DNA of 64,000 nucleotides, taken from assembly GCA_902591925.1 (NCBI GenBank), contig CACJCN010000004.1, forward strand, positions 15,854 through 79,853. The letters run 5' to 3'. Of this stretch, positions 7,821-64,000 are shown piece after piece. The notes beneath the pieces are model-generated. The model was given only the letters and a program-made list of their open reading frames with translations, was not told where the DNA came from and did no database searches. A program made the translations under genes and the position numbers. The DNA comes from an uncultured SAR86 cluster bacterium. GTDB taxonomy: Bacteria > Pseudomonadota > Gammaproteobacteria > Magnimaribacterales > D2472. Position 1 is the first letter of the stretch. Every line of letters starts with the position of its first letter.

Positions 7821-7874
7821 AGTAGTAATATTTTTATATGTCTATGACTGAGCAAAAAATTGAGAAATTAATTA

Positions 7875-9038
7875 ATGTCAAAATCTTCTAGAGAGGGAAT
7901 ATTTGGAATAACACTAACCGAATTAGTGATAATTTTATTTTTCATAATGCTCTTATTGGCTTTGTTTAACATTGAAAGAGTAAATGAAGAGCTTGAAGAA
8001 ACTCAAAAGCTTGTACCGGAGTCCTCCGAAGATATCATTCCAATGTCAACAATAATTACTTGGCTTTTCCCTGATGGCGAAATTGACTCAGATTTAGTAC
8101 CGGTAAAAGTCATTGAAGATGAAATTAGAGAACTACAAAAGGCTCAAAATGACTTTAAAAAATTAACTGAAGAATCATCTGAAGGTGATGGTGATTGTAG
8201 AGAGGGTTATTGGATCACGCAAAAATGCGCTGATCATTGTTGGGAAATTAATTCAGACGAGTATTCAAGACAATATGACTATTTAATTGATATTGGTGTA
8301 TGCAAATCTTCGGTTGTAGTTCAAAGGTCAAAATGGCTTCAAAAATCTGAATCTGATTTTTTGTTAGTTGACGGAGCATTAGCTTTAACTGAGCAAAAAT
8401 TTATGAAAGCATCTCAACTTTATGATTATTTAGATGTCATAAAGGAACCAGGATACGTACAACTTCCAAAACAGTGTTTTCATTCAGTTAATGTTATTGA
8501 TCTCGATGGGGTATCAGCAGCCAGATTTGACCCTATTGAACTAGCTATTGGCGATAGAGTAAACAGAAGACCGTTAACAAATCCTAATTCTCGATCTTAT
8601 TCAGAAATCAAGGAAAGATTTCCTCAAGATATCTGTGATATTTATTTAGAGGATGAAAAAGATACAAATAAAAATATATCTCAAAATCAACCAGATTCCT
8701 CAATTGAATCAGAAGCAAGCACTGTAAACATTGTTAGAGCAAAATTAGATTTAAATTCATTTGTTGACGCATTTACAGATGAATGTTCAAATTCACGGCC
8801 GACAAGAAATAAAAGTATTGTTCTTAATTATCAGGTTTCACTATCAAATACTGGAGAGGTTGTAGATGTTGAATCTCTTTCTGAAGACGAATTGATTAAC
8901 TCTTATCTTAAGAGATTAGACACTATGGCTACAAGAGCTCTAAGAAAATCTAAATTCACTCCTGAGTATCTCGAGGGAGTTCCGGTACCATCTAATTTAT
9001 TACAAAAAGTGCCTTTTGGTGAAAATGCTTGCAAATAA
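7875..9038 (+). CDS. MotB/ExbD/ZorB-like TM protein with Cys-rich region and TonB-C-like C-terminal domain
   Basis: TM GITLTELVIILFFIMLLLALF; C-terminus VLNYQVSLSNTGEVVDVESL..LDTMATRALRKSKFTPEYLEGVPVPSNLLQKVPF follows the TonB_C pattern. Confidence 0.6.
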   Translation: MSKSSREGIFGITLTELVIILFFIMLLLALFNIERVNEELEETQKLVPESSEDIIPMSTIITWLFPDGEIDSDLVPVKVIEDEIRELQKAQNDFKKLTEESSEGDGDCREGYWITQKCADHCWEINSDEYSRQYDYLIDIGVCKSSVVVQRSKWLQKSESDFLLVDGALALTEQKFMKASQLYDYLDVIKEPGYVQLPKQCFHSVNVIDLDGVSAARFDPIELAIGDRVNRRPLTNPNSRSYSEIKERFPQDICDIYLEDEKDTNKNISQNQPDSSIESEASTVNIVRAKLDLNSFVDAFTDECSNSRPTRNKSIVLNYQVSLSNTGEVVDVESLSEDELINSYLKRLDTMATRALRKSKFTPEYLEGVPVPSNLLQKVPFGENACK

Positions 9039-9050
9039 CTCTTTTACTTA

Positions 9051-9524
9051 TTGACTGTAATGCAAAAATTTGAAATAGATTTCGTAAATTTTTTAACAAA
9101 TAAGGAACCGGACTTTAATAATAGATTTCTTCAAGATATATGGGAATATTCTGATATTGAGATCGAACATACTCATGACTTTATTCAGATATTGTTTCCT
9201 CTTAACGAAGAAAGCAATGCGGTATCTCATGGCATATTTCTTGATTCTGAGGAAATTATAAGAAATATTAAAAATAATGAGGCTGTCAAAAATAATATTA
9301 TTAAATCATCAAAATGGTTCCTTTCATTTTTGGCTAGGAACTCACATTGGAAAAGAAAACATGATCATAACTATTTCAGAGTAACTAGAATTATTAAATC
9401 ATTAAGATTATTAGTATCTGATCAGGAAGCAAATAAATTTTATGAATCATTTATGCAACTTGTTGACGAAAATCTCAAATCAAAAATTAATTCAACAACA
9501 CTCACTTACTGGGAAAATGCTTAA
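9051..9524 (+). CDS. Opioid growth factor receptor (OGFr) conserved-domain protein
   Basis: EIEHTHDFIQILFPLNE.S and HNYFRVTRIIKSLRLL motifs. Confidence 0.75.
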   Translation: MTVMQKFEIDFVNFLTNKEPDFNNRFLQDIWEYSDIEIEHTHDFIQILFPLNEESNAVSHGIFLDSEEIIRNIKNNEAVKNNIIKSSKWFLSFLARNSHWKRKHDHNYFRVTRIIKSLRLLVSDQEANKFYESFMQLVDENLKSKINSTTLTYWENA

Positions 9525-9865
9525 TCACAAGAATCAAAATCAAAACAACTTACTCCATGTTCTTTTTCAAAAGCCCATTTTCGTAAATCATTATTTTTTT
9601 CTAATAATTGGTTAATTTGGTTTAAGTGTTCATTTAAAATCCTTTGTTGAAACCTCAGCTCAGCTCTCTTTTGTTTAGATTTATGAAAGCGTATTGCATG
9701 TTTTAATCTTAGAGCACTAAACTCTAACCTGCTCTCTAACTCCCTCAACATAAAATAAATGTCCCATACATGAAAGCTTATTTTGGTGAACTCTGATGAA
9801 TCTTTATACCATTTAGGCCACATACCGCCTCTTAAAGTTCGATACTTATTTAATTTTTTTATCAT
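9521..9865 (-). CDS. Hypothetical helical protein abutting umuC
   Basis: ATG immediately follows the umuC stop; 114-aa ORF. Confidence 0.55.
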   Translation of the reverse strand: MIKKLNKYRTLRGGMWPKWYKDSSEFTKISFHVWDIYFMLRELESRLEFSALRLKHAIRFHKSKQKRAELRFQQRILNEHLNQINQLLEKNNDLRKWAFEKEHGVSCFDFDSCD

Positions 9866-11128
9866 TTAATTTACCTTTGGTAAGTCATACCAATTAGTTG
9901 TGTATTTAGGTGAGGTCATGTTCTGTTTCATAGGCGACCACTTTTTTGTATTTTGTGATGCATAGTAAATCTGAGTTTCATAGGAATTCATTTGATCAAG
10001 ATATTTCATTAGTTTTGTATTTTGTTTAGGGTCATTGGGATCTTTAAACAAAGAATGTTGTTTAACGTGCTCGTTAGTAAATTTATTTAAGATTATTCCT
10101 GCTTTTGCATAATCATACCCAGGTCTGAAGATAGGCAATAATCCCTTTTTTGCCGCTGTAAGAATATCTCTAGTATCGTTTGTAGGTGTAATTAGTCCGA
10201 TTGTTCTCAGATCTGAGTGTTGAGGTTTATTTTTATTAAAAGGGCTGGTTCTTACAAAGACAGACACTTGAGAGCATTTTTGTCTTTCACTTCTTAACTT
10301 TTCTGCTGCTCTAACAGCAAAATTACTAACTATAGGTTTTAACGTTTCTAAATTAGAAACTCTTTCACCAAAGCTTCTACTCACAACAATTTGTTTTTTT
10401 GACGAAATGTCATCTTCAATATTAAGACATCTTTCACCCCTTAATTCCCGAACAGTTCTTTCCAAAACCACACTAAATTTTTTTCTAATATTTTGAGGAT
10501 TAACGTTTGCAAGATCTAACGCTGTATTGATACCAGCATTATTTAAGTGATCATTTAATCTTCTTCCAACTCCCCATACTTTGCCTACTGGAGTATGTTG
10601 CAAGGCAATTTCAATTTGTTTTCTATTTGATAGATCAATTACTGAGGTCGGTATATTTTTTCTTTTAATTTCATTTATAGCAATCTTACTTAAAGTTTTG
10701 TTTGGAGCTATTCCTATTCGAACTGGAATTCCTGTCCATTGCCTTACCAAAGATCTTATGTGACAACCAAAATCATATAAATTATAGTTTTGCTTCAAAG
10801 TGTCTAAGTCTAGAAAGGCCTCATCGATACTATATATTTCAACTCTTGGAACAAACCCCTCAAGAATATTCATTACTCTGGCCGATATATCTCCATAAAA
10901 TGTAAAATTTGATGAAAACACTTTTCCATTTTGCTTCAGAAAAGATTCTCTAACCTTAAACCATGGAACACCCATTGCGATTCCCATTTTTTTTGCTTCC
11001 GTACTTCTTGCTATAACACAGCCATCATTATTAGAAAGTACAACAATAGGAACGTTCTTTAGGTCTGGACGAAAAATTCTTTCACAGGAAGCATAAAAAC
11101 TTTCACAGTCAACAAGAGCAAAAGCCAT
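9866..11128 (-). CDS. umuC: DNA polymerase V subunit UmuC (Y-family)
   Basis: ALVDCESFYASCE, VVLSNNDGCVIARS, YSIDEAF, C-terminal SPKYTTNWYDLP. Confidence 0.95.
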   Translation of the reverse strand: MAFALVDCESFYASCERIFRPDLKNVPIVVLSNNDGCVIARSTEAKKMGIAMGVPWFKVRESFLKQNGKVFSSNFTFYGDISARVMNILEGFVPRVEIYSIDEAFLDLDTLKQNYNLYDFGCHIRSLVRQWTGIPVRIGIAPNKTLSKIAINEIKRKNIPTSVIDLSNRKQIEIALQHTPVGKVWGVGRRLNDHLNNAGINTALDLANVNPQNIRKKFSVVLERTVRELRGERCLNIEDDISSKKQIVVSRSFGERVSNLETLKPIVSNFAVRAAEKLRSERQKCSQVSVFVRTSPFNKNKPQHSDLRTIGLITPTNDTRDILTAAKKGLLPIFRPGYDYAKAGIILNKFTNEHVKQHSLFKDPNDPKQNTKLMKYLDQMNSYETQIYYASQNTKKWSPMKQNMTSPKYTTNWYDLPKVN

Positions 11129-11556
11129 TAGAATTTATTAATTGCTGCGGTTACAGTTCCTACTATTTCTAATTCTTGTCCGCTATTAATGAAGATAGGA
11201 GGGTACTCAGGATTTTCAGGCATTAAACACATTCTTGGTTTGAGCTTTAATCTTTTACATACAAATTCGCCATCTATAGTTGCTACCACAATACTGTTGT
11301 GAGAAGGCTTTATACTTCTATCGACGATCAAGACTGCTTGATCGGTAATGCCAGAACCAACCATGGATTGTCCCTGCGCTCTAACCAGAAAAGTTGCAGC
11401 ACCATTTTTTATTAGGTGTTTATTTAAGTCTATTGGACTTTCAATATAGTCGCTTGCCGGACTGGGGAATCCGGCATGGACTGATTCAAGAAAATAGGGC
11501 ACAAATATTGCCGGCAGATTTTCTTCAGAAATTTTTCCGATATAGTCAACTTTCAT
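11128..11556 (-). CDS. umuD: DNA polymerase V subunit UmuD (S24 peptidase)
   Basis: AGFPSPA cleavage site, GQSM catalytic Ser, VCKRL Lys; TAATG overlap with umuC. Confidence 0.95.
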   Translation of the reverse strand: MKVDYIGKISEENLPAIFVPYFLESVHAGFPSPASDYIESPIDLNKHLIKNGAATFLVRAQGQSMVGSGITDQAVLIVDRSIKPSHNSIVVATIDGEFVCKRLKLKPRMCLMPENPEYPPIFINSGQELEIVGTVTAAINKF

Positions 11557-11563
11557 GGGTTAA

Positions 11564-11583
11564 TACTGTATATATATACAGTA
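11564..11583. promoter_or_regulatory. LexA (SOS) box
   Basis: TACTGTATATATATACAGTA, a perfect match to the E. coli-type consensus, 8 nt upstream of the umuD ATG. Confidence 0.92.
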
Positions 11584-11607
11584 TATTTAAATCTAATTAT
11601 TTGTAAA
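11580..11607 (-). promoter_or_regulatory. Predicted sigma70 promoter of umuDC
   Basis: TTTACA (11607-11602), N16, TATACT (11585-11580); the -10 overlaps the LexA box. Confidence 0.6.
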
Positions 11608-11615
11608 GTAGTTAA

Positions 11616-12329
11616 TCAAGCAATAGAAAATCTTTCTAAATTATATGATTCATCGTCAAGACGAAGATACCAACCAAAGTCATCCCAATCGCCAAGAACA
11701 ATACGTTTTGAGGATGCATATTCATGAATATTAGGTCTGTGAGTGTGACCATGAATAAATATGTCAGGAGAGTAATCGTCAATAATTTTTTTGACCGATG
11801 ACTCGTTAACATCAGTGATTTCTATGGATTTATCTTGGGTTGCATCATTGCTATCACTTCTTAGTTTTGATGCAATTTCACTTCTTTCTTCAATTGACTT
11901 ACTCAAAAAATTATCTTGCCAGGCTTTATCTCTAACCTGATTTCTAAAATTAATGTAATCAACGTCATCAGTACACAAGAAGTCTCCATGACTTAAGAGA
12001 ACTTTTTTATTATGCATAGTTATTTCAAATGGATCGGGAAGAAGTTTAATACCAGTATCAGTCAAAAATTTCTCACTTATTAAAAAATCTCTATTACCAT
12101 GCATAAGAAAGGTATCTGGTCCATTAGTTGTAAACTTTAAAAGTTCAGATTTTATGTTGTTTATAAAACTTGTTTCATAATCATCACCAATCCAAACTTC
12201 AAATAGGTCTCCAAGAATAAAAAGTTGCGAGCAAGATTCTTTAGAATCTTTAAGAAAATTTATAAAAGCAGCAGATAGTTTATTATTACTTTCGCTTAAA
12301 TGTATGTCCGATATAAAAAAGGATGTCAT
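11616..12329 (-). CDS. lpxH: UDP-2,3-diacylglucosamine diphosphatase
   Basis: [41 protein letters not shown]; follows ppiB. Confidence 0.93.
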
Positions 12330-12934
12330 TCAGAGATAGTAACTGACTCAATAGTTATCACTTCTTCAGGAACATCTTGATAGGCTCCAGATGATCCAGT
12401 TGCAACTTCTGCTATTTGATCAACAACATCCATACCTTCAGTAACCATACCAAATACAGCATATCCCCATCCTTGAGATGTTTCACCAGTATGATTTAAA
12501 AATGCATTGTCCTTGTGATTAATAAAGAACTGACTTGTAGCTGAGTGTGGATCCATCGTTCTGGCCATTGCAATAGTACCTCTGTCATTTGGCAATCCAT
12601 TATTAGCTTCATTTTGTATAGGACCAGTTCCACTAGACTTATTACTCATATCAGCAGTTAATCCACCGCCTTGAATCATGAAACCATTTATAACTCTATG
12701 AAATATTGTTCCTTCATAATATCCACTTGAAGCAATAGTTTTAAAATTTTCAACTGTTATAGGTGCTTTATCGTCATTAAGTTCAAGTTGAATGTCTCCA
12801 ACAGATGTTTTTATTATTACTTGTGTCATTTTATTCTCCATAAGATTATTAGCTTCATCATTTTCAATAACATCCACACATGAGGTTAATGCGACTAAAA
12901 GAGGTATAAAGATTTTAAAGTTTCTAGTTTTCAA
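12326..12934 (-). CDS. ppiB: Cyclophilin-type peptidyl-prolyl isomerase with lipoprotein-like N-terminal extension
   Basis: [34 protein letters not shown]; ppiB-lpxH synteny; TTG start, lipobox LTSC. Confidence 0.88.
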
Positions 12935-12968
12935 TGATTCGCCTTAGATATTAATATTGATTTTATCA

Positions 12969-14087
12969 TCAAAATTCATATTTCATCATGTAGTTTTTAA
13001 AACAGTCTTTAACTTTAGCTTCGTTTAAACCAAATTCTTCTATTGAATATGAATGCTTTTCTTTTTTTAACTTACTCTGATTTATTAGATAGTTTTTAAT
13101 TTTATTTTCGGTTTCAATATCCATATCAAATTCAAAGTTTTGGTATATATCTTTCAAAATGTTTAAAGGATCATCTATAAAATTGCTATAACTAATATCA
13201 ATGATTTGATCTGAGGAAAGGTTTTCTTTAGCTTGGATGCCTTTTTGAAGACTGTGTTGCCAAAAGTCTAAAATAACTTCACCAATTTGCTCTGGATTCA
13301 CATTCTTTGAGAAGGCAGATCTTATATTTTTTGCAAGGCTGCAAAAAGATGCTACCGATTCCATAGGATCTCTATGTATATTTATAAATTTTGCATTTGG
13401 ATAGGTGGTTAATATTTCTGGAATGTGGCCTATGTGACTTGGGTCTTTAAGTAACCATCTTTTAGGCCTTCCATTAATTTCTAGGACTTGAAAAAATCGT
13501 TTATGCCATTTAAAAACAGAATCAAAGCTACAGTCTTTTAGATACTCTACGTATTCAGGAACATTTGCCATACACATATAGACAAAACTTCTTACATTTA
13601 TGGTTGCAAGGAGTTCACATTCTTCTGGTGAGTTTGCTCTTATATGATGCATGTTTCTTAATTTAGGAATAATTGTTCTCGCAAACTTTAATTCAGCATT
13701 GATCTTCCATTCCCGTCTTTTAATATCAAATTTATTTTTAACTAGTGGCATCAAGGACATTATTTCCCAATATCTAGGAGACCTATGACTATTATCAAGA
13801 GCAAGTAAATTAAAAAGAAAAGTAGTGCCTGACCTTGGAAGGCCAGTTACAAAAACCGGATTAGCTGTTGAGGGGAGATCTCTGTCTTTTACAAAGTTAT
13901 ATAATTTACTTCTCATTTTCAGCCTATCTTTAAGCTGATTTTTAAATGCTATGGAACCAAAAAGATTAAATTCGTTATTTTTATTTGCTGAATTTATTAG
14001 AATTTCAAGTGGCTCAGTATAGTCATCCTCTCCAAGTTTTCCTTCGAGTCCATTTAGCATGCTTTTGACGCTTATTTTATTAATCAC
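12969..14087 (-). CDS. Sulfotransferase family protein
   Basis: VFVTGLPRSGTTFL (PAPS loop), WLLKDPSH, IHRDP.ESVAS. Confidence 0.85.
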   Translation of the reverse strand: MINKISVKSMLNGLEGKLGEDDYTEPLEILINSANKNNEFNLFGSIAFKNQLKDRLKMRSKLYNFVKDRDLPSTANPVFVTGLPRSGTTFLFNLLALDNSHRSPRYWEIMSLMPLVKNKFDIKRREWKINAELKFARTIIPKLRNMHHIRANSPEECELLATINVRSFVYMCMANVPEYVEYLKDCSFDSVFKWHKRFFQVLEINGRPKRWLLKDPSHIGHIPEILTTYPNAKFINIHRDPMESVASFCSLAKNIRSAFSKNVNPEQIGEVILDFWQHSLQKGIQAKENLSSDQIIDISYSNFIDDPLNILKDIYQNFEFDMDIETENKIKNYLINQSKLKKEKHSYSIEEFGLNEAKVKDCFKNYMMKYEF

Positions 14088-53892: not shown

Positions 53893-54624
53893 GTGATTAA
53901 AAAATTTATACATCAATTTGCATCTCCAAAAACATACCTATATCAGGTAGGCAGGTTTTATAAATATATTTTTTACTTCTCTTTGGTAATTTACATTATG
54001 TCTATTATTTGGGGTCTTTTTTTTACACCAGAAGATTTTGTTCAAGGAAATTCATATAGAATTATCTATCTGCATGTTCCTGCCTCGTTTTTATCTCAGA
54101 CATTATATTTAGCAATGGCAATATCCAGCGTCACTTATTTAATTTGGAGAGTTAAGCTTGCAGCATACTTAATCATTGCGATTGCGCCTATTGGAGCCAT
54201 GACAACATTTATTGCATTAATATCAGGATCTATATGGGGAATACCCACTTGGGGTACTTGGTGGCAATGGGACGCAAGAATAACATCGACATTAATTTTA
54301 TTTATTATGTATTTAGGTTTAATATCGCTTCATAATTCATTCAGCAATCATGAAAAAGCAGATAAATTGCTGTCATGGTTAGTAATTGTCGGAGCTGCAA
54401 ACATTCCTATCATTAAAAAATCAGTTGATTGGTGGAGCACACTCCATCAGTCTGCATCCATAACATTAACTGATAAGCCCAGTATTGATCCAGTGATGTT
54501 GTATCCTCTGATAGGCTCAATTATAGGATTTTTTGGCTTGATGATTTGTTTAGTTCTACTTTCATCAAAATATCAAATACTCCATAGAGAAAAAAATAAA
54601 TCTTGGGTGAGAGATTATGTTTAA
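53893..54624 (+). CDS. ccmC: Heme exporter protein C
   Basis: YRIIYLHVP, WGIPTWGTWWQWDARITS, VDWWSTLHQ. Confidence 0.95.
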   Translation: MIKKFIHQFASPKTYLYQVGRFYKYIFYFSLVIYIMSIIWGLFFTPEDFVQGNSYRIIYLHVPASFLSQTLYLAMAISSVTYLIWRVKLAAYLIIAIAPIGAMTTFIALISGSIWGIPTWGTWWQWDARITSTLILFIMYLGLISLHNSFSNHEKADKLLSWLVIVGAANIPIIKKSVDWWSTLHQSASITLTDKPSIDPVMLYPLIGSIIGFFGLMICLVLLSSKYQILHREKNKSWVRDYV

Positions 54625-54784
54625 TTTTGCATTTAATTCTTTGTATGAGGCCTTATATATGAATGGTCACGGATTATATGTTTGGAGCGTAGTAATACTA
54701 GTTTTTATTAGTTTATTAGGCTTTTTTATAGGATACACTGTAAAAATTAAAAAAATTAAAGATAAATTAAATGAACCCAATTAG
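54617..54784 (+). CDS. ccmD: Heme exporter protein D
   Basis: Manual translation, 55 aa: MFNFAFNSLYEALYMNGHGLYVWSVV..., TM plus basic tail, between ccmC and ccmE; below the ORF-track cutoff. Confidence 0.85.
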   Translation: MFNFAFNSLYEALYMNGHGLYVWSVVILVFISLLGFFIGYTVKIKKIKDKLNEPN

Positions 54785-55181
54785 AAAGAAACGAATATAC
54801 AGCATTCTTTTTGTATTTTTATTTTCAGTTTCAGGTATTTCACTAATTCTTTACTCATTAAACTCTAATTTAGATTATTTTTTTACGCCAACCGAACTAA
54901 AAGATAGAAATATTCCGGCTGATAAAAGAATTAAGGTTGGAGGTATGGTTTTAAGTGGATCAGTAGAAAGAATTTCATCTTCAATTTCTTTTGTCATCAC
55001 TGATTATGAAAACTCAATTAAAGTTGAATATGAGGGCATAGTCCCAGACTTATTTAAAGAAGATAGCGGTGTTGTCGTTTTAGGAAATTTAAGAGATAAA
55101 ATATTGTATGCAGAAGAAGTTTTAGCTAAGCATGATGAAAACTATATGCCTCCAAATATTGAGTTAAGTAATGATAATTGA
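54771..55181 (+). CDS. ccmE: Cytochrome c maturation heme chaperone
   Basis: FFTPTE, GIVPDLFKE..G.VV.G, LAKHDENYMPP. Confidence 0.95.
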   Translation: MNPIRKKRIYSILFVFLFSVSGISLILYSLNSNLDYFFTPTELKDRNIPADKRIKVGGMVLSGSVERISSSISFVITDYENSIKVEYEGIVPDLFKEDSGVVVLGNLRDKILYAEEVLAKHDENYMPPNIELSNDN

Positions 55182-57066
55182 AATCTCTCATTTTTTATCA
55201 ATTTTAGCTACCGGCTTATTTTTGCTCGTTGGTTATTTCTCTATGCTTACTCCTTCATCAAATTCTAGGTACATATCAAACTTGATTGTTAGAACATATT
55301 CGCATGGATTCTTTTTTCTTCTGTCCTCATTTTTAATATATGTTTGGCTAGCAATTACAGATAATTTTAGTGTTCAATATATTGCAAATCACTCAAATAC
55401 AGCACTTCCGATTTTTTATAAAATTTCTTCGATATGGAGTGCACATGAAGGCTCAATGTTTCTATGGATTGTTTTCTTGTCTTTATGGGGATTTTTATTC
55501 AATATTAGGGTTAAAAATAGTGAAGTTTTAAAGCCTAAAACTATGGGAGTAATTTCTTTAATATTGGTTGGATTTTTAATATTCTTGTTAGCAACATCAA
55601 ATCCTTTTGAAACAATACTTCCAATTCCACCTTTAAATGGAGCTGATATTAATCCAGTCTTGCAAGATCCTGCCTTAGCAATTCATCCCCCAACTCTTTA
55701 TTTGGGATACGTCGGATTTGTAATTCCGTTTGCTTGCTCAATTGCTTTTTTGCTCTATGGCGATTCCAAAATAAACTGGGAAGCTTTAGTAAAAACATGG
55801 TCTGTTTCTGCATGGGTTTTTCTCACAGTTGGTATAACTCTAGGAAGTTGGTGGGCTTATTATGAATTGGGTTGGGGAGGATATTGGTTTTGGGATCCTG
55901 TTGAAAATGTTGCATTAATGCCATGGCTAGCGGCTACTGCATTTATTCATTCGCTTGGAGTATCAATAAAATCATCGCAGCTTAGAATTTGGACAATTTT
56001 ATTATCAATTCTAGTGTTCTCTCTCAGTTTGTTTGGTGCTTTTATTGTTAGATCTGGAATTATTGATAGCGTTCATGCATTTGCAAATGATCCTGATAGA
56101 GGCCTATATCTTCTTGGATTTATTGGAATAATTGTCTTCATATCAGTTTTTTTGTTTATTTTGAGATTATCAAGCATTCAATCCTTGTCGAGAATTAAGA
56201 AATTTTCGAAACAATCATTTATTTCTATAAATAATATTCTTTTTGGAGCTCTTATCTTTTCGGTGATGTTGGGCGTCACTTACCCATTAATTTATGAATT
56301 TTTATTTGATCAAAAAATTAGTGTTGGCGCGCCATTTTATAATGCAATTTTTATCCCAATAGTTGTTTTAGCTGCAATTTTTTTATTTTTCTCAGTTGAT
56401 TCAAAATGGTCAAGAAGCATTAACTTCAAATTTATTTCAGCGCCTATATCATTTTCAATTTTATTATCATTAGCGTTTACTTTATTTATTATGCAATATT
56501 TTGAGTCTCAGAGTATTTCAGTACTTGCTTCGATATTTGCAGGCTCATTGATTATATTTAGATACATATATGAAATTATTAACTCAATTTTTAGTAAGAA
56601 ATTTATAAATCCTTTCAGTGTAATAGCGCATATATCACTTGGATTACTTTTAATATCTATTTCATTCAATAGTCTTTTGAGCACTGAAAGAGCTTTAAGT
56701 ATTGGCTTGAATAGTACTGAGGCATACAAAGACTTAAAAATAAGTTTTAAAGATATTGGTGTGGAAAATAATACTAATTATGATTCAATAAAAGCAACAT
56801 TTCTTGTAGAAGATCAAACCGGTAGAACATTTAATCTTAAGCCAGAAAAAAGAAGATATTTTACTAGAGGTCAAATCACTACAGAAACAGCAATTCATGT
56901 AACACTTTTGAGAGATATCTACATAACAATTGGTGATCAGCTTGATGATGGAAGTTGGATTGTGAATATTCAAATTAACTATTTAATAAGATGGATTTGG
57001 TTATCAGCATTATTGATGGGTTTAGCTGGAGTAGTATTAGTTTTTTCAAATAGGGTCAAAACATGA
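55171..57066 (+). CDS. ccmF: Cytochrome c heme lyase subunit
   Basis: HEGSM, LNPxLQ-like INPVLQD..IHPP, WAYYELGWGGYWFWDPVEN. Confidence 0.95.
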   Translation: MIIEISHFLSILATGLFLLVGYFSMLTPSSNSRYISNLIVRTYSHGFFFLLSSFLIYVWLAITDNFSVQYIANHSNTALPIFYKISSIWSAHEGSMFLWIVFLSLWGFLFNIRVKNSEVLKPKTMGVISLILVGFLIFLLATSNPFETILPIPPLNGADINPVLQDPALAIHPPTLYLGYVGFVIPFACSIAFLLYGDSKINWEALVKTWSVSAWVFLTVGITLGSWWAYYELGWGGYWFWDPVENVALMPWLAATAFIHSLGVSIKSSQLRIWTILLSILVFSLSLFGAFIVRSGIIDSVHAFANDPDRGLYLLGFIGIIVFISVFLFILRLSSIQSLSRIKKFSKQSFISINNILFGALIFSVMLGVTYPLIYEFLFDQKISVGAPFYNAIFIPIVVLAAIFLFFSVDSKWSRSINFKFISAPISFSILLSLAFTLFIMQYFESQSISVLASIFAGSLIIFRYIYEIINSIFSKKFINPFSVIAHISLGLLLISISFNSLLSTERALSIGLNSTEAYKDLKISFKDIGVENNTNYDSIKATFLVEDQTGRTFNLKPEKRRYFTRGQITTETAIHVTLLRDIYITIGDQLDDGSWIVNIQINYLIRWIWLSALLMGLAGVVLVFSNRVKT

Positions 57067-57584
57067 ATTTATTATTAAGATTAATAGTTTTCACAGTCCC
57101 AACAACTTTCATATTATTATTTTTTATGATTTTAACAAATGAAGATACATATCCTGGAGCTGACTATGATCAATTTCAGGTCCCTGAATTTGAATTAAAA
57201 GTTCTTGATAATTCAATTTCAGTCAAAAGTGACTTTTTAAATGGTGATTACGTCTTAAATGTATGGGCGAGCTGGTGTGTAACTTGCATCATAGAACATC
57301 CATACCTAACAAGCTTAAGCAAAAATGGCATACCTATTATTGGATTAAATTACAAAGATGAACAAGAAGATGCCATCATTTGGTTAAAAAAATATGGCAA
57401 TCCGTATCAAACAATATTGCATGATTATCAGGGAAATTTGGCACTTGATTTAGGTGTGACAGGAGCACCAGAAACATTTTTGATTAACGATGGTAAAGTT
57501 ATCGCTCATTATCAAGGTGAGGTAAACGATCAAATATGGAATGATGTTTTTTTGCCAGTTATAAAAGATAGGAAAATGTTTTAG
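57063..57584 (+). CDS. ccmG: Thiol:disulfide interchange protein DsbE/CcmG
   Basis: NVWASWCVTC..EHP, LGVTGAPETF. Confidence 0.92.
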   Translation: MNLLLRLIVFTVPTTFILLFFMILTNEDTYPGADYDQFQVPEFELKVLDNSISVKSDFLNGDYVLNVWASWCVTCIIEHPYLTSLSKNGIPIIGLNYKDEQEDAIIWLKKYGNPYQTILHDYQGNLALDLGVTGAPETFLINDGKVIAHYQGEVNDQIWNDVFLPVIKDRKMF

Positions 57585-57953
57585 ATGAGATATTTATATA
57601 TATTTTTATTGTTCTCATCATTAAACATCTCATCAGATAACTTATATTATTTTGAAGATGAGCAAGATGAAAATAGATTTAACAATTTAATAAAAGATAT
57701 CAGATGCCCTAAGTGTACTTCTGGTTCTTTATCAAGTTCAAATGCTCCAATATCTGAAGATTTAAAAATTAAGATTGCAGAAATGATCAATGAAAACAAA
57801 ACTGATCAAGAAATCAAAGACTATGTTTCGTCAAGATTTGGACAAGATTCTTTATATAAACCTGAGTTAAATAACTCAACCTATATTTTATGGTATTCTC
57901 CTTTTGCTTTTTTACTTTTAGCTTTTTTAATTTTTTTCTTTAGAAAAAAATAA
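57585..57953 (+). CDS. ccmH: Cytochrome c biogenesis protein CcmH
   Basis: IRCPKC..SL..SNAPIS.DL, RFG...LYKP. Confidence 0.9.
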   Translation: MRYLYIFLLFSSLNISSDNLYYFEDEQDENRFNNLIKDIRCPKCTSGSLSSSNAPISEDLKIKIAEMINENKTDQEIKDYVSSRFGQDSLYKPELNNSTYILWYSPFAFLLLAFLIFFFRKK

Positions 57954-58738
57954 TGTTTATTTTTTATCTATTAACAACATTAGCAGCTTTGCCAATAATT
58001 GCTTATGTTTTGGCTCAGAAAACGATAAATAAGGGGTTAATTCTTGGATCATCATTGTTAATCCTTTCCTTATGCCTGTTTATGTTTATAAGTAAATTTG
58101 CATTTATTGGTTCATTTGAAAAACAAACACTAAATAATAAAATTTTTGATGAAATTTATATTGATTCAGCAATACCTGTTGAATATTTTATACAACTAGA
58201 AAATATTCTTGATGAAGATGAATTGAAGAATTGGCTAGTAGGCCTAATTGGCAAATCAATAGATTTGAAAAAACTCAAGTCAGCCGAGAGTTTGGTAGCT
58301 TTTTCAGAGAGATTTTTTATATCAAATAATGAAAAGCTTATCTTTTATAACTTATATTCTGCTTTAAGAGATGAGAAATTTCCTAAATTTAAGAACTCTA
58401 GTTTTAAGATAGACCCTAGCTCATTGTATCCATGCTCTATAAAAAATGGAGAAGTTACTCTTTTCATAGCAAATGGTCCTGAAATACCAATTGCAAGAAA
58501 AGAATTCAAAAACAAAGATAATATTTTATTAAATAATCTAGATAGTGTGATACCTGGATTTGATTTAGCATCTGCATATTTAAACCAAGAATCTATTGAG
58601 GTAAAAATTAAAATTAATTGTTTGGATGATCGGCAAACATTTTTTATGCAAAATACAATAGTTATTAATCAAAATACATCTTCTAATTCATACATAATTA
58701 ATTTAAATGAATGGTTTAAAACCCCACAAGAGTTATAA
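57953..58738 (+). CDS. Divergent CcmI/CycH-like membrane protein
   Basis: Position after ccmH; two N-terminal TMs; C-terminal VTLFIA..GP.IPIA resembles the CycH C-terminal domain. Confidence 0.5.
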   Translation: MFIFYLLTTLAALPIIAYVLAQKTINKGLILGSSLLILSLCLFMFISKFAFIGSFEKQTLNNKIFDEIYIDSAIPVEYFIQLENILDEDELKNWLVGLIGKSIDLKKLKSAESLVAFSERFFISNNEKLIFYNLYSALRDEKFPKFKNSSFKIDPSSLYPCSIKNGEVTLFIANGPEIPIARKEFKNKDNILLNNLDSVIPGFDLASAYLNQESIEVKIKINCLDDRQTFFMQNTIVINQNTSSNSYIINLNEWFKTPQEL

Positions 58739-58763: not shown

Positions 58764-60962
58764 ATGCAGCTTAAACATATAAAACTCTCAGGTTTTAAAA
58801 GTTTCGTTGATCCAACGAAGATATCTTTTCCAACAAATATGGTCGGCGTTGTAGGTCCTAACGGTTGTGGAAAATCAAATGTAATTGATGCTGTTAGATG
58901 GGTGCTTGGTGAATTATCAGCAAAAAATCTTAGAGGTGAATCAATGGTGGACGTCATCTTCAACGGCTCAGAGAACAGAAAAGCTTCTGGGCAATGCAGT
59001 ATCGAGCTTTTATTTGATAATTCGAGTGCCAAAATAGGAGGAGAGTACGCTTCATTTAATGAGGTATCAATTAAAAGAGTTATGACAAGAGACGCTCAGT
59101 CTGATTATTTTATAAATAATACAAAATGTAGAAGGAAAGATGTACAAGATATATTCCTTGGAACTGGCCTTGGACCAAGCTCTTATGCAATTATTGAACA
59201 AGGGATGGTCAGTAAGCTTGTTAGTGCTAAACCGGATGAGCTAAGAACGCATATTGAAGAGGCTGCAGGAGTTTCAAAGTATAGAGAAAGAAGAAGAGAA
59301 ACAGAATCTAGAATTAAAAGAACTAGAGAGAATTTATCTCGAGTAAAAGATATTAGAGATGAAATTGGAAGATTAATAAAAAGACTTGAGAATCAGGCAA
59401 AAGCTGCTGAAAAATATAATGTACTTAAAAAAGATAAAGCAAAACTTGAACTGGATAAGGCCATTCTGTTTTCTATTGAAGCCAAAAGTAGCAGAGATGA
59501 TCTTCAAAAAAAATTAGATTCATTAAACAGAGACTTACAGATAAAAAATGCTGAATCTGAAACTATACAATCTCAAATAGATCAATTTAGAACCGAAAAT
59601 GAATCAGTTCTTAGCGAATATGAAGACGCTCAAAAGAATTTTTATGCTGTTGGTGCAGAAATAGCTAAAAGGGAAGCAAACCTTCAAAACATCAATAAAA
59701 ATGAACAAGAAACAAAGTCTAATTTAGAAAAAGTAAAACAAAACTACGAAAAAGCCAAGGAGACTGAAAAGAATTTTGAAGAGTTAAGTCCTAGTGAAAA
59801 GGCAATGCATATCCTTGATAGCATGATAAATACAATCGAGAAATATGGAATAAATAATGAAAATATCAGAGAAAAAGCTATTGAATTAAAAAGCTTGCTT
59901 ACAGATATACTTAATATAGCAACTGCCCAATCCAAGACATTAACTGAGGAGTATTTATCAAGACAAAATGATTTAGAAGACCAAATTGTAAATGCTGAAA
60001 AACTGAAAAAGTCTATCGAAGATGAAATGAAAGACTTTGTAGATAAAAGTTCTAGTGCTGAATCAGTTTTGATTTCCCTAAGGCAAAAACAATCTAAATT
60101 TAATGAAGAGTTGAGAGAGTTTGAAAATAAAAAATCTATTACAGATTTAGATGCTAGAACAATTTCTGAAAAGATCACAAATATAAGAATTGAGCAAAAA
60201 ACATATGAAATTAATTTAGATAATTCAAACAAAAAAATTAAAGAAGCTGGAATAGACATAGATAAAATAGATTTTTCTGAATATGAAGATATGACTACGG
60301 ATGAGCTTGAAGATAAGCTGGTCAATATTGAGACAAAAATAATAAAATTAGGAGCCATTAATTTAGCTGCGCCAGAGGAAATAGAAGAGGAATCAAAAAG
60401 AAAAGAAGAGCTAGATGAACAATATAATGACTTAACAGAAGCTTTAGAAAAACTTACTGGAGCAATAAAAAAGATAGATCAAGAAACCAAAACAATTTTT
60501 AAGGAAAGCTTTGATTCTGTTAATTCAAAACTAAATGAGATGTTTCCAAAACTCTTTGGTGGTGGGGTAGCTGAATTAACCTTGACTGAGGAGGATGCCT
60601 TAAATGCTGGTGTGATTTTAATGGCAAGACCTCCTGGAAAGAAAAATTCATCAATATCTCAATTATCAGGTGGTGAAAAAGCCTTGACTGCATTGGCCTT
60701 AGTTTTTGCAATTTTTGACTTAAATCCAGCACCTTTTTGTTTGCTAGATGAAGTAGATGCTCCTCTAGATGACTTGAATACATTAAGATTCATAAATATG
60801 GTCGAGGAGATGTCAAAAACTGTTCAGTTTATATTTATAACTCATAATAAAGTTTCAATGGAAAGAAGTGACTACCTTATGGGTGTAACAATGCAAGAGG
60901 CTGGAGTTTCGAGAATGGTATCGGTGGATGTTAATCAAGCTCTCGAATTGGCTGAATCCTAA
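58764..60962 (+). CDS. smc: Short SMC-family chromosome segregation ATPase (732 aa, no recognisable hinge)
   Basis: GPNGCGKSN, EEAAG, LGAINLAAPEE, LSGGEKALTAL, LDEVDAPLD; smc-zipA synteny. Confidence 0.9.
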   Translation: MQLKHIKLSGFKSFVDPTKISFPTNMVGVVGPNGCGKSNVIDAVRWVLGELSAKNLRGESMVDVIFNGSENRKASGQCSIELLFDNSSAKIGGEYASFNEVSIKRVMTRDAQSDYFINNTKCRRKDVQDIFLGTGLGPSSYAIIEQGMVSKLVSAKPDELRTHIEEAAGVSKYRERRRETESRIKRTRENLSRVKDIRDEIGRLIKRLENQAKAAEKYNVLKKDKAKLELDKAILFSIEAKSSRDDLQKKLDSLNRDLQIKNAESETIQSQIDQFRTENESVLSEYEDAQKNFYAVGAEIAKREANLQNINKNEQETKSNLEKVKQNYEKAKETEKNFEELSPSEKAMHILDSMINTIEKYGINNENIREKAIELKSLLTDILNIATAQSKTLTEEYLSRQNDLEDQIVNAEKLKKSIEDEMKDFVDKSSSAESVLISLRQKQSKFNEELREFENKKSITDLDARTISEKITNIRIEQKTYEINLDNSNKKIKEAGIDIDKIDFSEYEDMTTDELEDKLVNIETKIIKLGAINLAAPEEIEEESKRKEELDEQYNDLTEALEKLTGAIKKIDQETKTIFKESFDSVNSKLNEMFPKLFGGGVAELTLTEEDALNAGVILMARPPGKKNSSISQLSGGEKALTALALVFAIFDLNPAPFCLLDEVDAPLDDLNTLRFINMVEEMSKTVQFIFITHNKVSMERSDYLMGVTMQEAGVSRMVSVDVNQALELAES

Positions 60963-61586
60963 ATGAGTGTAAATTCTGAGATATATCTAATAGGACTCGC
61001 TATTTTGATATTTCTTATAATTACTTTTTTATTCATAAGAAAAGTCTCAAATAACGGTAAGTTAAAAGTTAAAATTGAGAAAGTTCAAGATTCATCAGAT
61101 TTAAATATTTCAGATGAGCCACATAAAAATCAACAATCTTTTGATTTTGATATAAATCAGTCAAAAGAGCAGGAATTAGTAATACTAAATCTAATTTCTA
61201 TGGATAGATCTATGTTTGATATGGATCAATTATTTGGTTTTTTATCAAATTATGGAGCAAAAACTTTGAATAATTATTTTGCTTTTTATCAAGATAATAA
61301 AACAGAAAAATTTCGGGTTATAAACGCTTTAAAACCAGGAACTTTTGAAGATGAAACTAAATCATTTGCTATCGCAGTCGTATCTGATTTAAATGTTGTA
61401 GATGACCCTTTAAATACAGTGAAACAAATGATCGAATTTTCAATTAATTTTGCAGAAAAATTTTATGCAACACTTTGTGATCAAGACAGAACTCCAATGA
61501 CAAAACAAATGATTTCACATATTGAGTCTAGAGCTCAAGATATAGCAAGATTAAAACAATTAAATATTTCTGATACGGAAAAATAA
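60963..61586 (+). CDS. zipA: Compact ZipA (TM plus FtsZ-binding domain)
   Basis: N-terminal TM, then LVILNL..NALKPGTF..M......F...L.D..R..MT.Q; follows smc. Confidence 0.7.
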   Translation: MSVNSEIYLIGLAILIFLIITFLFIRKVSNNGKLKVKIEKVQDSSDLNISDEPHKNQQSFDFDINQSKEQELVILNLISMDRSMFDMDQLFGFLSNYGAKTLNNYFAFYQDNKTEKFRVINALKPGTFEDETKSFAIAVVSDLNVVDDPLNTVKQMIEFSINFAEKFYATLCDQDRTPMTKQMISHIESRAQDIARLKQLNISDTEK

Positions 61587-61590
61587 ATAA

Positions 61591-62877
61591 ATGATAGAAC
61601 CTTGGAAGATTATTGAAGAACTTGAAAGTGATAACAGTCGATTATTTAAAGAAGGAGTAATAGAAAAGCATCTTAACGATAAAACTTTCCAAGAGGGACT
61701 TGTTATGTGTTTAGATCCTTTGACTACATTTGGAGTAAAACAAGTACCTGAATGTATTGAAGATGGGGCCGGTCTTGATTGGAGTGATTTTAAAAAAGCT
61801 GCAAACCAATTAATAGATAGAGAAAAAACTGGCCATGCTGCAAGAGATTTGATTATTGAATTAATTGAATCATCAAAGACAGATCAGTGGAATGATTGGT
61901 ATAGAAGAATCCTTATAAAGGACCTCAGGTGTGGAGTAAGTGAAAAGACGGTAAACAATGTTGCAAAAAAAATGGATTTAGAATTTAGAGTTCCTATTTT
62001 TTCTTGTATGTTAGCTCATGATGGCGCTAAACATCCAAAAAAAATTAAGGGTGATTGTTTAGTAGAGTATAAATATGATGGTGTAAGAGTTGTTGCCATT
62101 GTTAAAAATGGAAGAGCAACTTTATACAGCCGAAATGGAAAAATATTTAATAATTTTCCCCACATAGAAAGTGCTCTTAGTAAAAAAGAATTTAATAATC
62201 TTGTTTTTGATGGAGAAGTGATGAGCGATGATTTTCAGGCTTTAATGAAACAAGTTTATAGAAAATCAGGAGCAAAAACTGACGATGCTTATCTCGCTTT
62301 GTTTGACATTCTTCCTCTAAAAGAATTTAACAATGGAAAAAGTAGACTAAATTCAATTAATAGAAAAGAACAACTTAATAAATTGGCTCAATCTTTTGAT
62401 GATTCAATTAAGCTAGTAGATTATGAAATTATCAACTTTGATAATGATGATGGGCAAGCTAAATTTTCTAACATGAATAAAGAAGCACTTGAAAAAGGTT
62501 TTGAGGGTTTAATGATTAAACCTTGCAACAATTTTTATGAATGTAAAAGAAGTCATGCTTGGTTGAAAATAAAACCATTTATTGAAGTTACTTTGAAGGT
62601 AATCAAAATTCAAGAAGGAACTGGAAAGCATGAGGGCAAGTTAGGTGCTTTTCATGTTGAAGGTAATGATGATGGGAAGTTTTTTTCATTAAGTGTTGGA
62701 AGTGGGCTTACTGATGATGATAGAGAAAAATTTTGGGCTGCAAAAGATAAGCTTATTGGTAGAATGATCGAAATACGAGCAGATGCTATAACTCAAAGTA
62801 TTGAGGGCGAGCACTATAGCTTAAGATTTCCAAGATTTAAAAACTTTAGAGGATTTAAAGAGGATGAAAAGATTTAA
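61591..62877 (+). CDS. ATP-dependent DNA ligase
   Basis: KYDG (K161), SRNGK, FDGE, EGLMIK, KRSHAWLKIK, OB-fold VGSG and SLRFPRF; no LigA motifs or BRCT domain. Confidence 0.93.
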   Translation: MIEPWKIIEELESDNSRLFKEGVIEKHLNDKTFQEGLVMCLDPLTTFGVKQVPECIEDGAGLDWSDFKKAANQLIDREKTGHAARDLIIELIESSKTDQWNDWYRRILIKDLRCGVSEKTVNNVAKKMDLEFRVPIFSCMLAHDGAKHPKKIKGDCLVEYKYDGVRVVAIVKNGRATLYSRNGKIFNNFPHIESALSKKEFNNLVFDGEVMSDDFQALMKQVYRKSGAKTDDAYLALFDILPLKEFNNGKSRLNSINRKEQLNKLAQSFDDSIKLVDYEIINFDNDDGQAKFSNMNKEALEKGFEGLMIKPCNNFYECKRSHAWLKIKPFIEVTLKVIKIQEGTGKHEGKLGAFHVEGNDDGKFFSLSVGSGLTDDDREKFWAAKDKLIGRMIEIRADAITQSIEGEHYSLRFPRFKNFRGFKEDEKI

Positions 62878-63469
62878 ATATAGCTATTTATTATTATTAA
62901 TATTAATCATTCAATCTTGTGCAACTAGGCCTCCAGAAAATCCAGATAACATATGCTTAATTTTCAAAGAAAAAAAAAGTTGGTATAAAGCGGTAATTAG
63001 AAGTGAAAAAAGATGGAAAATACCACCTTACGTATTAATGTCATTTGTTTATCAAGAATCAAGTTTTCAGGCAGATGCCAGACCTGAAAGAGAAAAATTA
63101 TTAGGTTTTATTCCATGGTTTAGACCATCTTCAGCTGTAGGATATTCACAGGCTTTAACAAAAACTTGGGAAGATTATAAAGATGAAACTGGCAATACAA
63201 GAGCAAGTAGAAAAGATTTTGGAGACTCAGCTGATTTTATTGGCTGGTATGCTAGTAAGGGATACTATCAAGGTTTTGAAAAAACTGACGCACGTTCTTT
63301 ATATTTAGCATATCACGAAGGTTATGGAGGATTTGAAAAAAAGACATATAGGAAAAAGCAGTGGTTAATAAAAGTTGCTGACAGAGTTCAGGATAGATCT
63401 GCAAAATATCAAAAACAGTATTGGGGTTGTGCGAAAGAGTTGAAAAGGAAGAAATTTATATTTTTTTAA
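62864..63469 (+). CDS. SLT-like transglycosylase lipoprotein
   Basis: Lipobox IQSC, VYQESSF...A, SSAVGYSQAL..TW, YLAYHEG. Confidence 0.8.
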   Translation: MKRFKYSYLLLLILIIQSCATRPPENPDNICLIFKEKKSWYKAVIRSEKRWKIPPYVLMSFVYQESSFQADARPEREKLLGFIPWFRPSSAVGYSQALTKTWEDYKDETGNTRASRKDFGDSADFIGWYASKGYYQGFEKTDARSLYLAYHEGYGGFEKKTYRKKQWLIKVADRVQDRSAKYQKQYWGCAKELKRKKFIFF

Positions 63470-64000
63470 CTAGATGTTTTTAATTTCAAAATTCATTTTT
63501 TTCATTTCATCAATATAATTTTTTCCAGCTATTACAGATTTTTTAGATTCATTGAATAAATATTTTTGTGAAACATTAATTAAATCATTTAATGTTAAGT
63601 TCTTAACTAATGATCTCATCTCTAGTCTTTTTTCTAAATCTTTTTTATCAAGGTTCATTGAAAAATCACTCATTGCTTCACCAAAAGGTGATAACGGTTT
63701 ATCTATACTTGAAACTATTCCCAAGATTCCTTCGTCAAGTTGATCTTGCGTAATGTTTTTAAGTGACCATTCTCTAGATTTTTTAAATTCTTGAAATGTT
63801 TGAGAACATTTAGGATCACGATATGAGAAGAATTTAAAAATCTTGTTATTAGAGTCCTGCATCGCACCAGAACCATAGGCACCACCTTTTTCTCTTATAG
63901 CTGAATGTAAATATCCATTTCTAAGAACAGCACCAAGAACACTTAGTGCAGGAGCGTCTTTATGAAAAAAATCAACGGTTGGAAAAGCCTCAGCACAATA
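63470..64000 (-). CDS. Insulinase/presequence protease (M16C) C-terminal part; runs off the right edge
   Basis: Manual translation from base 64000: YCAEAFPTV..APALSVLG..L.NGYLHSAIREKGGAYG, then FFSYRDP. Confidence 0.85.
   Translation of the reverse strand, partial: YCAEAFPTVDFFHKDAPALSVLGAVLRNGYLHSAIREKGGAYGSGAMQDSNNKIFKFFSYRDPKCSQTFQEFKKSREWSLKNITQDQLDEGILGIVSSIDKPLSPFGEAMSDFSMNLDKKDLEKRLEMRSLVKNLTLNDLINVSQKYLFNESKKSVIAGKNYIDEMKKMNFEIKNI

Follow-up and report, generated by a model that had tools for sequence, protein, structure and literature searches.

A phage-type DNA ligase in the chromosomal slot of ligA in low-GC SAR86 bacteria: probable in-place replacement of the NAD-dependent enzyme

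NAD-dependent LigA is the near-universal bacterial replicative DNA ligase. In a 64-kb stretch of genomic DNA from a SAR86 bacterium (Magnimaribacterales; this whole stretch is referred to below as the window), we analyzed the gene at positions 61591 to 62877 on the plus strand, which encodes a 428-amino-acid (aa) ligase resembling phage T4 ligase and the Prochlorococcus marinus enzyme known as AD-Lig P or Pmar-Lig, and which lies in the slot that holds ligA in the closest relatives. We consider it highly probable that a phage-type ligase was captured in this lineage, that it replaced ligA once and in place, and that it is now the sole and replicative ligase of its hosts. SAR86 makes up about 2 to 6% of surface-ocean prokaryotes, is overall most abundant in the surface layer, and now has at least one cultured representative.

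The ligase matched PF01068 (E = 3e-23) and PF14743, the OB-2 domain (E = 6e-12), and all six ligase motifs were intact, i.e., I (K161YDGVR), III (FDGEV), IIIa (LALFD), IV (EGLMIK), V (WLKIKP), and VI (RFPRF). Motif I, found by a pattern match on the translation at 62071 to 62088 (plus strand), contains the adenylated active-site lysine and was invariant in an alignment of the window ligase with Pmar-Lig and phage ligases, and motif VI occupies residues 412 to 416 in the C-terminal OB fold. In a phmmer search, the best solved-structure match was the ATP-dependent ligase of P. marinus (PDB 6RAU, 6RAS, and 6RAR); residues 6 to 428 of the window ligase aligned with chain residues 10 to 442 of 6RAU (E = 2e-132), and the end-to-end identity to Pmar-Lig was 50.5%. 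This alignment includes the N-terminal seven-helix DNA-binding domain, for which there is no Pfam model, and the domain order is thus a helical DNA-binding domain, a nucleotidyltransferase domain, and an OB-2 domain. Besides, the ligase has no signal peptide, because its N terminus is acidic and hydrophilic (maximum Kyte-Doolittle mean over 15 aa, 1.08). The N-terminal DNA-binding domain, KYDG motif, OB fold, and lack of a signal peptide read from the sequence in an initial annotation were therefore all recovered by Pfam, the 6RAU alignment, the motifs, and hydropathy. These comparisons show that the gene encodes an intact DNA ligase with three domains, which belongs to the ATP-dependent (PF01068) class and is of the T4/Pmar-Lig type; its 50% identity to the assayed Pmar-Lig suggests that it uses ATP as a cofactor.

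Other ligase types fitted poorly. The initial annotation had likened the enzyme to Lig W of Prochlorococcus; a Prochlorococcus relative was indeed found, but it is AD-Lig P/Pmar-Lig and not the WGR-domain ligase Lig W, as no WGR match was obtained at E ≤ 0.01 and the N terminus aligned with the DNA-binding domain of Pmar-Lig. Lig E is a minimal periplasmic enzyme of approximately 260 to 290 aa with a signal peptide, whereas the window ligase has 428 aa, a DNA-binding domain, and an acidic N terminus, and it scored 76.7 with the Lig E model NF006592 against a cutoff of 200. LigD and nonhomologous end-joining (NHEJ) ligases were likewise rejected, with scores of 93.6 for TIGR02779 (cutoff, 227.75) and 79.4 for TIGR02776 (cutoff, 373.2), no extra domains, and neither Ku nor LigD-type domains in the protein. 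Indeed, every NCBIfam ligase model, including the LigD/NHEJ, Lig E, and bacterial LigB types, scored far under its curated cutoff. None of the domains of NAD-dependent LigA (PF01653, PF03120, HhH, and BRCT) was present in the window ligase, whereas LigA from a ligA-bearing relative (contig L095) matched all of them.

In the window, ccmC through ccmI, smc, zipA, a 4-nucleotide (nt) gap, the ligase gene, and the gene for an SLT_4 family lipoprotein follow one another, all on the plus strand. The open reading frames (ORFs), together with Pfam matches of the ligase and both of its neighbors, agree with the annotated order of smc and zipA followed 4 bp later by the 428-aa ligase. In Escherichia coli, ligA lies directly after zipA, and several higher-GC gammaproteobacterial contigs carry smc-zipA-ligA-SLT_4, two of them (L051 and L054) with the peptidase gene PreP on the minus strand after SLT_4, in agreement with the conservation of smc-zipA-ligA in many gammaproteobacteria that the initial annotation gave as established. 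Outgroup synteny came from a scan of metagenome contigs with LigA of contig L042, which returned mainly unrelated gammaproteobacteria, the peptide patterns being too conserved; the sole close relative that it yielded was L095.

Relatives bearing ligA were found by comparing the window SMC with representatives of 50%-identity clusters, and then among contigs with low-GC shortened SMCs. The order smc-zipA-ligA was seen in L040 (SMC of 736 aa), L042 (810 aa), L045 (827 aa), and L043/L044 (906 aa), the closest relatives being L040, the group with an 810-aa SMC (L095, L211 to L214, and L042), and L045. L095, a 22-kb TARA contig of 31.6% GC, carries ccmA through ccmI, smc (810 aa), zipA, ligA, and SLT_4; its LigA (679 aa) comprises adenylation, OB, HhH, and BRCT domains. 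The L095 flanks on both sides consist of the same genes as in the window, with ligA occupying the ligase slot. A query with this LigA retrieved abundant LigAs of 677 to 684 aa, and the contexts that were looked up (L211 to L214, including two long-read contigs of 1.22 to 1.23 Mb, L211 and L212) all read ccm-smc(810)-zipA-ligA-SLT_4, followed by acyl-CoA dehydrogenases. The flanking genes of the ligA-bearing relatives matched wherever a contig extended far enough, with SLT_4 downstream in L095 and L211 to L214 and the ccm block upstream of smc in L095, L211/L212, and L214. The ligase gene thus occupies, within a few bases, the zipA/SLT_4 slot that belongs to ligA in its closest relatives as well as in other gammaproteobacteria.

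A neighbor-joining tree of SMC head domains (100 bootstraps) placed the lineages with the ATP-dependent ligase in one clade (97), with the ligA-bearing L040 as its sister (99), and the ligA lineages with 810- and 827-aa SMCs in a second clade (97). Because of these clades and of the presence of ligA in the same slot of the sister lineages, ligA appears to be ancestral and to have been replaced once, in place. Nonorthologous displacement in situ, as proposed from the window, is thus well supported by the synteny of 28 species, by ligA in the slot of the relatives, and by the SMC tree. In the same tree, the lineages with a hinge-less SMC were monophyletic (100) against 40 full-length gammaproteobacterial SMCs.

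The contigs of P0125 stop inside zipA, short of the ligase slot; P0225, with low GC and a full-length SMC, was dropped because its context is different; and L046 (906-aa SMC, smc-zipA-ligA-scpAB) was left unused because it falls outside the SAR86-like SMC clade. L046 represents an abundant low-GC marine lineage in which queF, smc (906 aa), zipA, ligA, scpA, and scpB are consecutive (6799 to 13404), a cluster that unites condensin subunit genes with ligA.

When each GTDB species was represented by one genome, a homologue scan recovered 28 loci, mostly titled SAR86 cluster bacterium, the rest being labeled only Gammaproteobacteria or Proteobacteria. Their ligases were 72 to 96% identical to that of the window; the CcmI-like gene, smc, zipA, the ligase gene, SLT_4, and PreP occurred in the same order at every one of the 28 loci, and none of these loci gave a LigA match. 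Across the resulting 29 SAR86 species, the ligases diverge by up to 33% (i.e., down to 67% identity), with 212 of the 428 residues invariant. Between the window and its most distant locus (L024), the identity was 72% for the ligase, 56% for SMC, 42% for ZipA, and 66% for SLT_4. The ratio of nonsynonymous to synonymous substitution rates (dN/dS) was 0.03 to 0.06 for the ligase gene, 0.03 for smc, 0.08 to 0.16 for zipA, and 0.13 to 0.27 for the CcmI-like gene, and the GC content at third codon positions was 0.19 in the ligase gene and 0.14 to 0.22 in neighboring genes. The arrangement is therefore fixed in at least 29 SAR86 species, and the ligase gene is a fixed, strongly constrained chromosomal gene of host-like composition rather than an island or prophage passenger.

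No match to E. coli LigA was obtained by tblastn in the 64-kb window, and a query with the SAR86-type LigA of L095 turned up no remnant of ligA in SAR86 DNA of the ATP-dependent ligase type (612 kb; the window plus the 28 loci); the absence of a remnant noted from the window alone thus extends to all of these loci. For the genome-wide status of LigA, we used the published CheckM marker matrix (PMC11582366, Tables S1/S2), in 47 of its genome columns. Within them, the LigA marker TIGR00575 is scored 1 in the closed genome HIMB1674, in Ma-G1, CHAB-I-7 CH-G1, and Su-G2, and in all visible Su-G3 genomes that passed the quality filter of that paper. It is scored 0 in Su-G10 (SAR86A, approximately 97% complete by family markers), in two Su-G9 single-amplified genomes (SAGs; 93% and 99% complete), and in five lower-quality genomes of 31 to 34% GC, and nearly all of these genomes score positive for the ZipA marker (PMC11582366). 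Within these columns, only the low-GC part of the Suzuki family (GTDB D2472) shows the loss of LigA, a pattern that matches the SMC tree and constitutes good but indirect evidence. One "complete genome," CP097973.1 (D2474-A1-1), carries L024, the most divergent SAR86 ligase of this type; it is one of nine composite genomes for which multiple misassemblies have been reported (PMC11582366, Supplementary Table 8 and text), and therefore it is no gold-standard closed genome for testing the absence of ligA.

The protein family of the ligase, phrog_114, is typical of phages. Among isolate phages, full-length homologues were present in 1,821 records (SPO1-like and T4-like), at no more than 35% identity. 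Closer homologues came from IMG/VR: an exact-peptide scan found 10 contigs, and at least 536 viral stretches came from a scan based on alignment, 80 of them being retained. Ligases of uncultured phages reached 63% identity to the window ligase (range, 55 to 63%), and those of different contigs reached 70% identity to Pmar-Lig. The phage contigs resemble T4-like myoviruses; L037, from a 137-kb contig, has polynucleotide kinase, RNA ligase, and homing endonuclease genes beside the ligase gene, and another (L201) has tail-fiber-like genes. No smc, zipA, SLT_4, or ccm genes were present on the phage ligase contigs. A phrog_1297 ATPase gene and phrog_1314 lie by the ligase gene both in L150, whose ligase is near that of SAR86, and in L194, whose ligase is near that of Prochlorococcus.

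In a neighbor-joining tree rooted with two SPO1-like (Spounavirinae) ligases, those of phages LysYB1 and SPO1, the SAR86 ligases were monophyletic (100) and nested in successive phage groups (56, 48, 62, and 85), and Pmar-Lig fell into a separate phage-rich clade (81, 99, and 89). The phage origin raised as a possibility in the initial annotation thus gains support from a tree that places the ligase among those of marine T4-like phages, with the SAR86 clade nested within phage sequences. Since each ligase has closer phage relatives, the SAR86 and Prochlorococcus ligases do not appear to be each other's closest relatives, which suggests convergence rather than a shared acquisition. Two independent captures from a marine T4-like phage ligase pool, one by SAR86 and one by Prochlorococcus, are probable in our estimation, which is held down by the moderate nodes beside SAR86 and by the distance-based method.

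The phrog_1297 ATPase is CobS/MoxR-like. With phrog_1314, it is encoded upstream of the gp30-type ligase gene in L150 (3191 to 5730) and downstream of it in L194 (7886 to 10402), and the set looks like a conserved phage gene neighborhood common to both ligase subclades.

We propose that, in the ancestry of the low-GC part of the SAR86 family Suzuki/D2472, a gp30-type phage ligase gene was taken up and ligA was then swapped out once, at its own site. The ligase would now be transcribed in the smc-zipA operon context that formerly belonged to ligA, and, because LigA is scored as absent from these genomes in the published matrix columns, it presumably acts as the sole and replicative ligase, sealing Okazaki fragments and repair nicks. 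By analogy with the structures and assays of Pmar-Lig (PDB 6RAU, 6RAS, 6RAR, and 6RCE; Williamson & Leiros 2019; Hjerde et al. bioRxiv 2020), ATP would adenylate Lys161, the 5' phosphate at the nick would receive the AMP, and attack by the 3' OH would close the nick, with the helical DNA-binding, nucleotidyltransferase, and OB domains wrapped round the DNA. The suggestion that this lineage is a second case of bacterial replication with an ATP-dependent ligase is supported to the extent that the role can be drawn from the absence of LigA and the occupation of the ligA slot.

Several points weigh against this proposal. Cofactor use and the replicative role are both features that we infer for the SAR86 enzyme, and no clamp-binding motif (QLxLF or PIP-like patterns) was found in the window ligase. 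The absence of LigA rests on 47 genome columns of the published CheckM table, in which most genomes are SAGs or metagenome-assembled genomes (MAGs), and TIGR00575 is blind to a truncated or highly divergent NAD ligase, such as ND-Lig tr of Prochlorococcus. Besides, no intermediate genome with both ligases was found, and the ligA-bearing contigs are putatively assigned to SAR86 from the SMC tree, GC content, genome size, and synteny. In addition, bootstrap values at the nodes adjoining the SAR86 ligase clade are only moderate (48 to 62), in a tree built by neighbor joining and not by maximum likelihood.

The enzyme might alternatively be an accessory repair ligase that lies beside zipA by coincidence, with a normal ligA elsewhere in the genome still serving replication. 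Auxiliary ATP-dependent ligases occur in many bacteria (PMC7470946), and SAGs and MAGs are incomplete; yet all low-GC Suzuki genomes in the 47 matrix columns, including those that are 93 to 99% complete, are scored 0 for TIGR00575 and 1 for ZipA (PMC11582366), and ligA lies directly after zipA in every SAR86-like lineage examined, so that a second site would need a translocation plus an insertion. Selection on the ligase gene is moreover as strong as that on smc, and the protein lacks Ku/LigD-type domains and scores far under the NHEJ models of NCBIfam. We therefore regard an accessory role as improbable. A gene carried by a prophage or genomic island without any host function would fit the phage-typical family phrog_114, but its likelihood is close to nil: the flanks contain no phage genes, the same chromosomal synteny is retained in 29 species with ligases down to 67% identity, and both the dN/dS of 0.03 to 0.06 and the host-like composition speak for a resident gene.

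The direction of transfer and the number of acquisitions also have to be weighed. Phages frequently take up host genes, and marine phages could have picked up an old ligase from SAR86 or from another cell, for which the moderate bootstraps around the SAR86 node (48 to 62) and the weak phage marking of some viral contigs (e.g., L140) leave some room. Against this, the family occurs on at least 536 viral stretches and is far more diverse there than in the SAR86 clade, which is a single tight clade (100) several nodes deep among phage sequences; in T4-like and SPO1-like phages, gp30-type ligases belong to the core set of replication genes (1,821 isolate records); the ligase neighbors shared by phage contigs near SAR86 and near Prochlorococcus point to vertical inheritance within phages; and the ligA-bearing sister lineages indicate that ligA is ancestral in SAR86. 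Transfer from host to phage is thus unlikely, although somewhat less so than an accessory role. A single acquisition, passed directly between SAR86 and high-light Prochlorococcus, could be entertained from their common surface-ocean habitat, the 50.5% full-length identity of their ligases, and the identities of no more than 35% to all isolate phage ligases. It is very unlikely, however, because phage ligases are closer to each enzyme (up to 63% for SAR86 and up to 70% for Pmar-Lig) than the two are to each other and because the tree splits SAR86 (bootstrap, 85) from Prochlorococcus (89 to 99). Capture from phages followed by in-place replacement of ligA accordingly remains our preferred reading.

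Why such a swap would be favored is a matter of speculation; the gene is approximately 750 bp shorter than ligA, NAD+ would be spared, and the Prochlorococcus homologue is the more active enzyme. The carriers are the SAR86 lineages with the smallest genomes and the lowest GC contents, a pattern that resembles the split between high-light and low-light Prochlorococcus.

In the window, whose overall GC content is 32.5%, the conserved upstream flank consists of ccmC, ccmE, ccmF, ccmG, ccmH, and the CcmI-like gene (53893 to 58738, from the ORF list), followed by a short smc (732 aa; 58764 to 60962; PF02463, E = 1.5e-56) and a short zipA (207 aa; 60963 to 61586; PF04354 ZipA_C, E = 2.7e-12), all on the plus strand. 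The zipA stop is separated by 4 nt from the ATG of the ligase gene, the 3' end of which overlaps by 14 nt the start of the gene for the SLT_4 family lytic transglycosylase lipoprotein (62864 to 63469, plus strand; PF19489, E = 4e-73), the conserved downstream flank. The wider downstream flank includes the 3' portion of a gene for a PreP-like peptidase (63470 to 63862, minus strand; PF22516, E = 1e-9), and no phage genes were found in the flanks of the ligase gene. In comparison with the closest relatives of the window (L002, L004, and L027), the synonymous divergence (dS) was 0.16 to 0.33 in the CcmI-like gene, smc, and zipA, approximately 0.5 in the ligase gene, and 1.5 to 1.8 in SLT_4; this jump across 60963 to 63469 suggests that homologous recombination had a breakpoint close to the boundary between zipA and the ligase gene.

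Both genes upstream of the ligase encode short proteins. The window ZipA, unusually short at 207 aa, has little beyond the membrane anchor and the FtsZ-binding ZipA_C domain; most SAR86-like relatives have 196 to 224 aa, against 328 aa in E. coli. The window SMC has no match to PF06470, the hinge, and it matched TIGR02168 only at model positions 1 to 372 and 667 to 1164. Shortened SMCs of 728, 732, 736, 810, 827, or 995 aa occur in all SAR86-like lineages, and no hinge match was present in any of those scanned with Pfam or carrying precomputed matches; examples other than that of the window (58764 to 60962) are L024 (7219 to 9405), L020 (6363 to 9350), and L095 (6751 to 9183). In a related low-GC lineage, two independent contigs, L049 (2621 to 5611) and L050 (1546 to 4536), each have smc called as a pair of ORFs (303 and 639 aa); SMC may be genuinely split in this lineage, or both contigs may have the same frameshift.

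We found no earlier report in the literature of a ligase swap in SAR86, and the SAR86 paper lists missing markers without remark on the ligase (PMC11582366). The phenomenon itself is already known from high-light Prochlorococcus, the only rule breaker proposed so far, in a preprint; the SAR86 case appears to be new and independent. We lean slightly toward the broader view that high-light Prochlorococcus and the low-GC Suzuki subclade of SAR86, both of which rank with the most abundant streamlined bacteria of the surface ocean, each swapped the NAD ligase in place, drawing on different branches of marine T4-like phages. If this is true, a recurrent selective driver would operate in sunlit, nutrient-poor water, e.g., NAD+ sparing, a smaller gene, or more active nick sealing under UV damage, and sister lineages with and without ligA in one family would offer a natural system for testing why NAD+ is the normal choice of bacteria. 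A second, phylogenetically independent exception in the abundant SAR86 would turn a curiosity into a pattern and would indicate phage replication genes as the donor pool, with closely related ligA-bearing and ATP-dependent ligase-bearing lineages available as a comparative test system. Furthermore, because TIGR00575 is in standard use as a marker of completeness and for phylogeny, its systematic absence would bias quality estimates for these genomes.

Among known systems, the closest is AD-Lig P, i.e., Pmar-Lig, which resembles T4 ligase and has three domains, among them a seven-helix DNA-binding domain (PMC7470946). It is reported to take the place of the full-length NAD ligase in high-light strains, to use ATP, and to exceed the NAD ligase of low-light Prochlorococcus more than 10-fold in activity (Hjerde et al., 10.1101/2020.05.11.089284). 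The SAR86 ligase shares with it the three-domain architecture, with 50.5% identity from end to end and no signal peptide, a location that coincides exactly with the slot of the full-length NAD ligase in the chromosome, and a streamlined, low-GC, surface-ocean host for which published data suggest that full-length LigA is absent. The hosts differ in phylum, being Cyanobacteria for AD-Lig P and Gammaproteobacteria for the window, and so do the slots, which lie near recA between two small hypothetical genes in Prochlorococcus and between smc-zipA and SLT_4 in SAR86. The two enzymes are not sisters in our tree, each being nearer to another group of marine phage ligases, and Pmar-Lig has been assayed biochemically, whereas the SAR86 enzyme is known from sequence. 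T4 gp30-type ligases (phrog_114; T4 ligase, PDB 6DT1) have the same family and domain order, with full-length identities to the SAR86 ligase of 30 to 35% for isolate phages and 55 to 63% for uncultured marine T4-like contigs, but the SAR86 gene is chromosomal and fixed in a bacterial clade, with host composition and in a host operon. With NAD-dependent LigA (TIGR00575), the ligase shares the position and operon context (zipA before and SLT_4 after) and presumably the cellular job; it differs in cofactor class and domain set, lacking the Ia, Zn-finger, HhH, and BRCT domains, and LigA is approximately 250 residues longer (677 to 684 aa in SAR86-like relatives versus 428 aa). Finally, Lig W of Prochlorococcus is also an ATP-dependent ligase with an OB-2 domain, but it has an N-terminal WGR domain and is found in a genomic island of few strains, whereas the SAR86 ligase matches Pmar-Lig.

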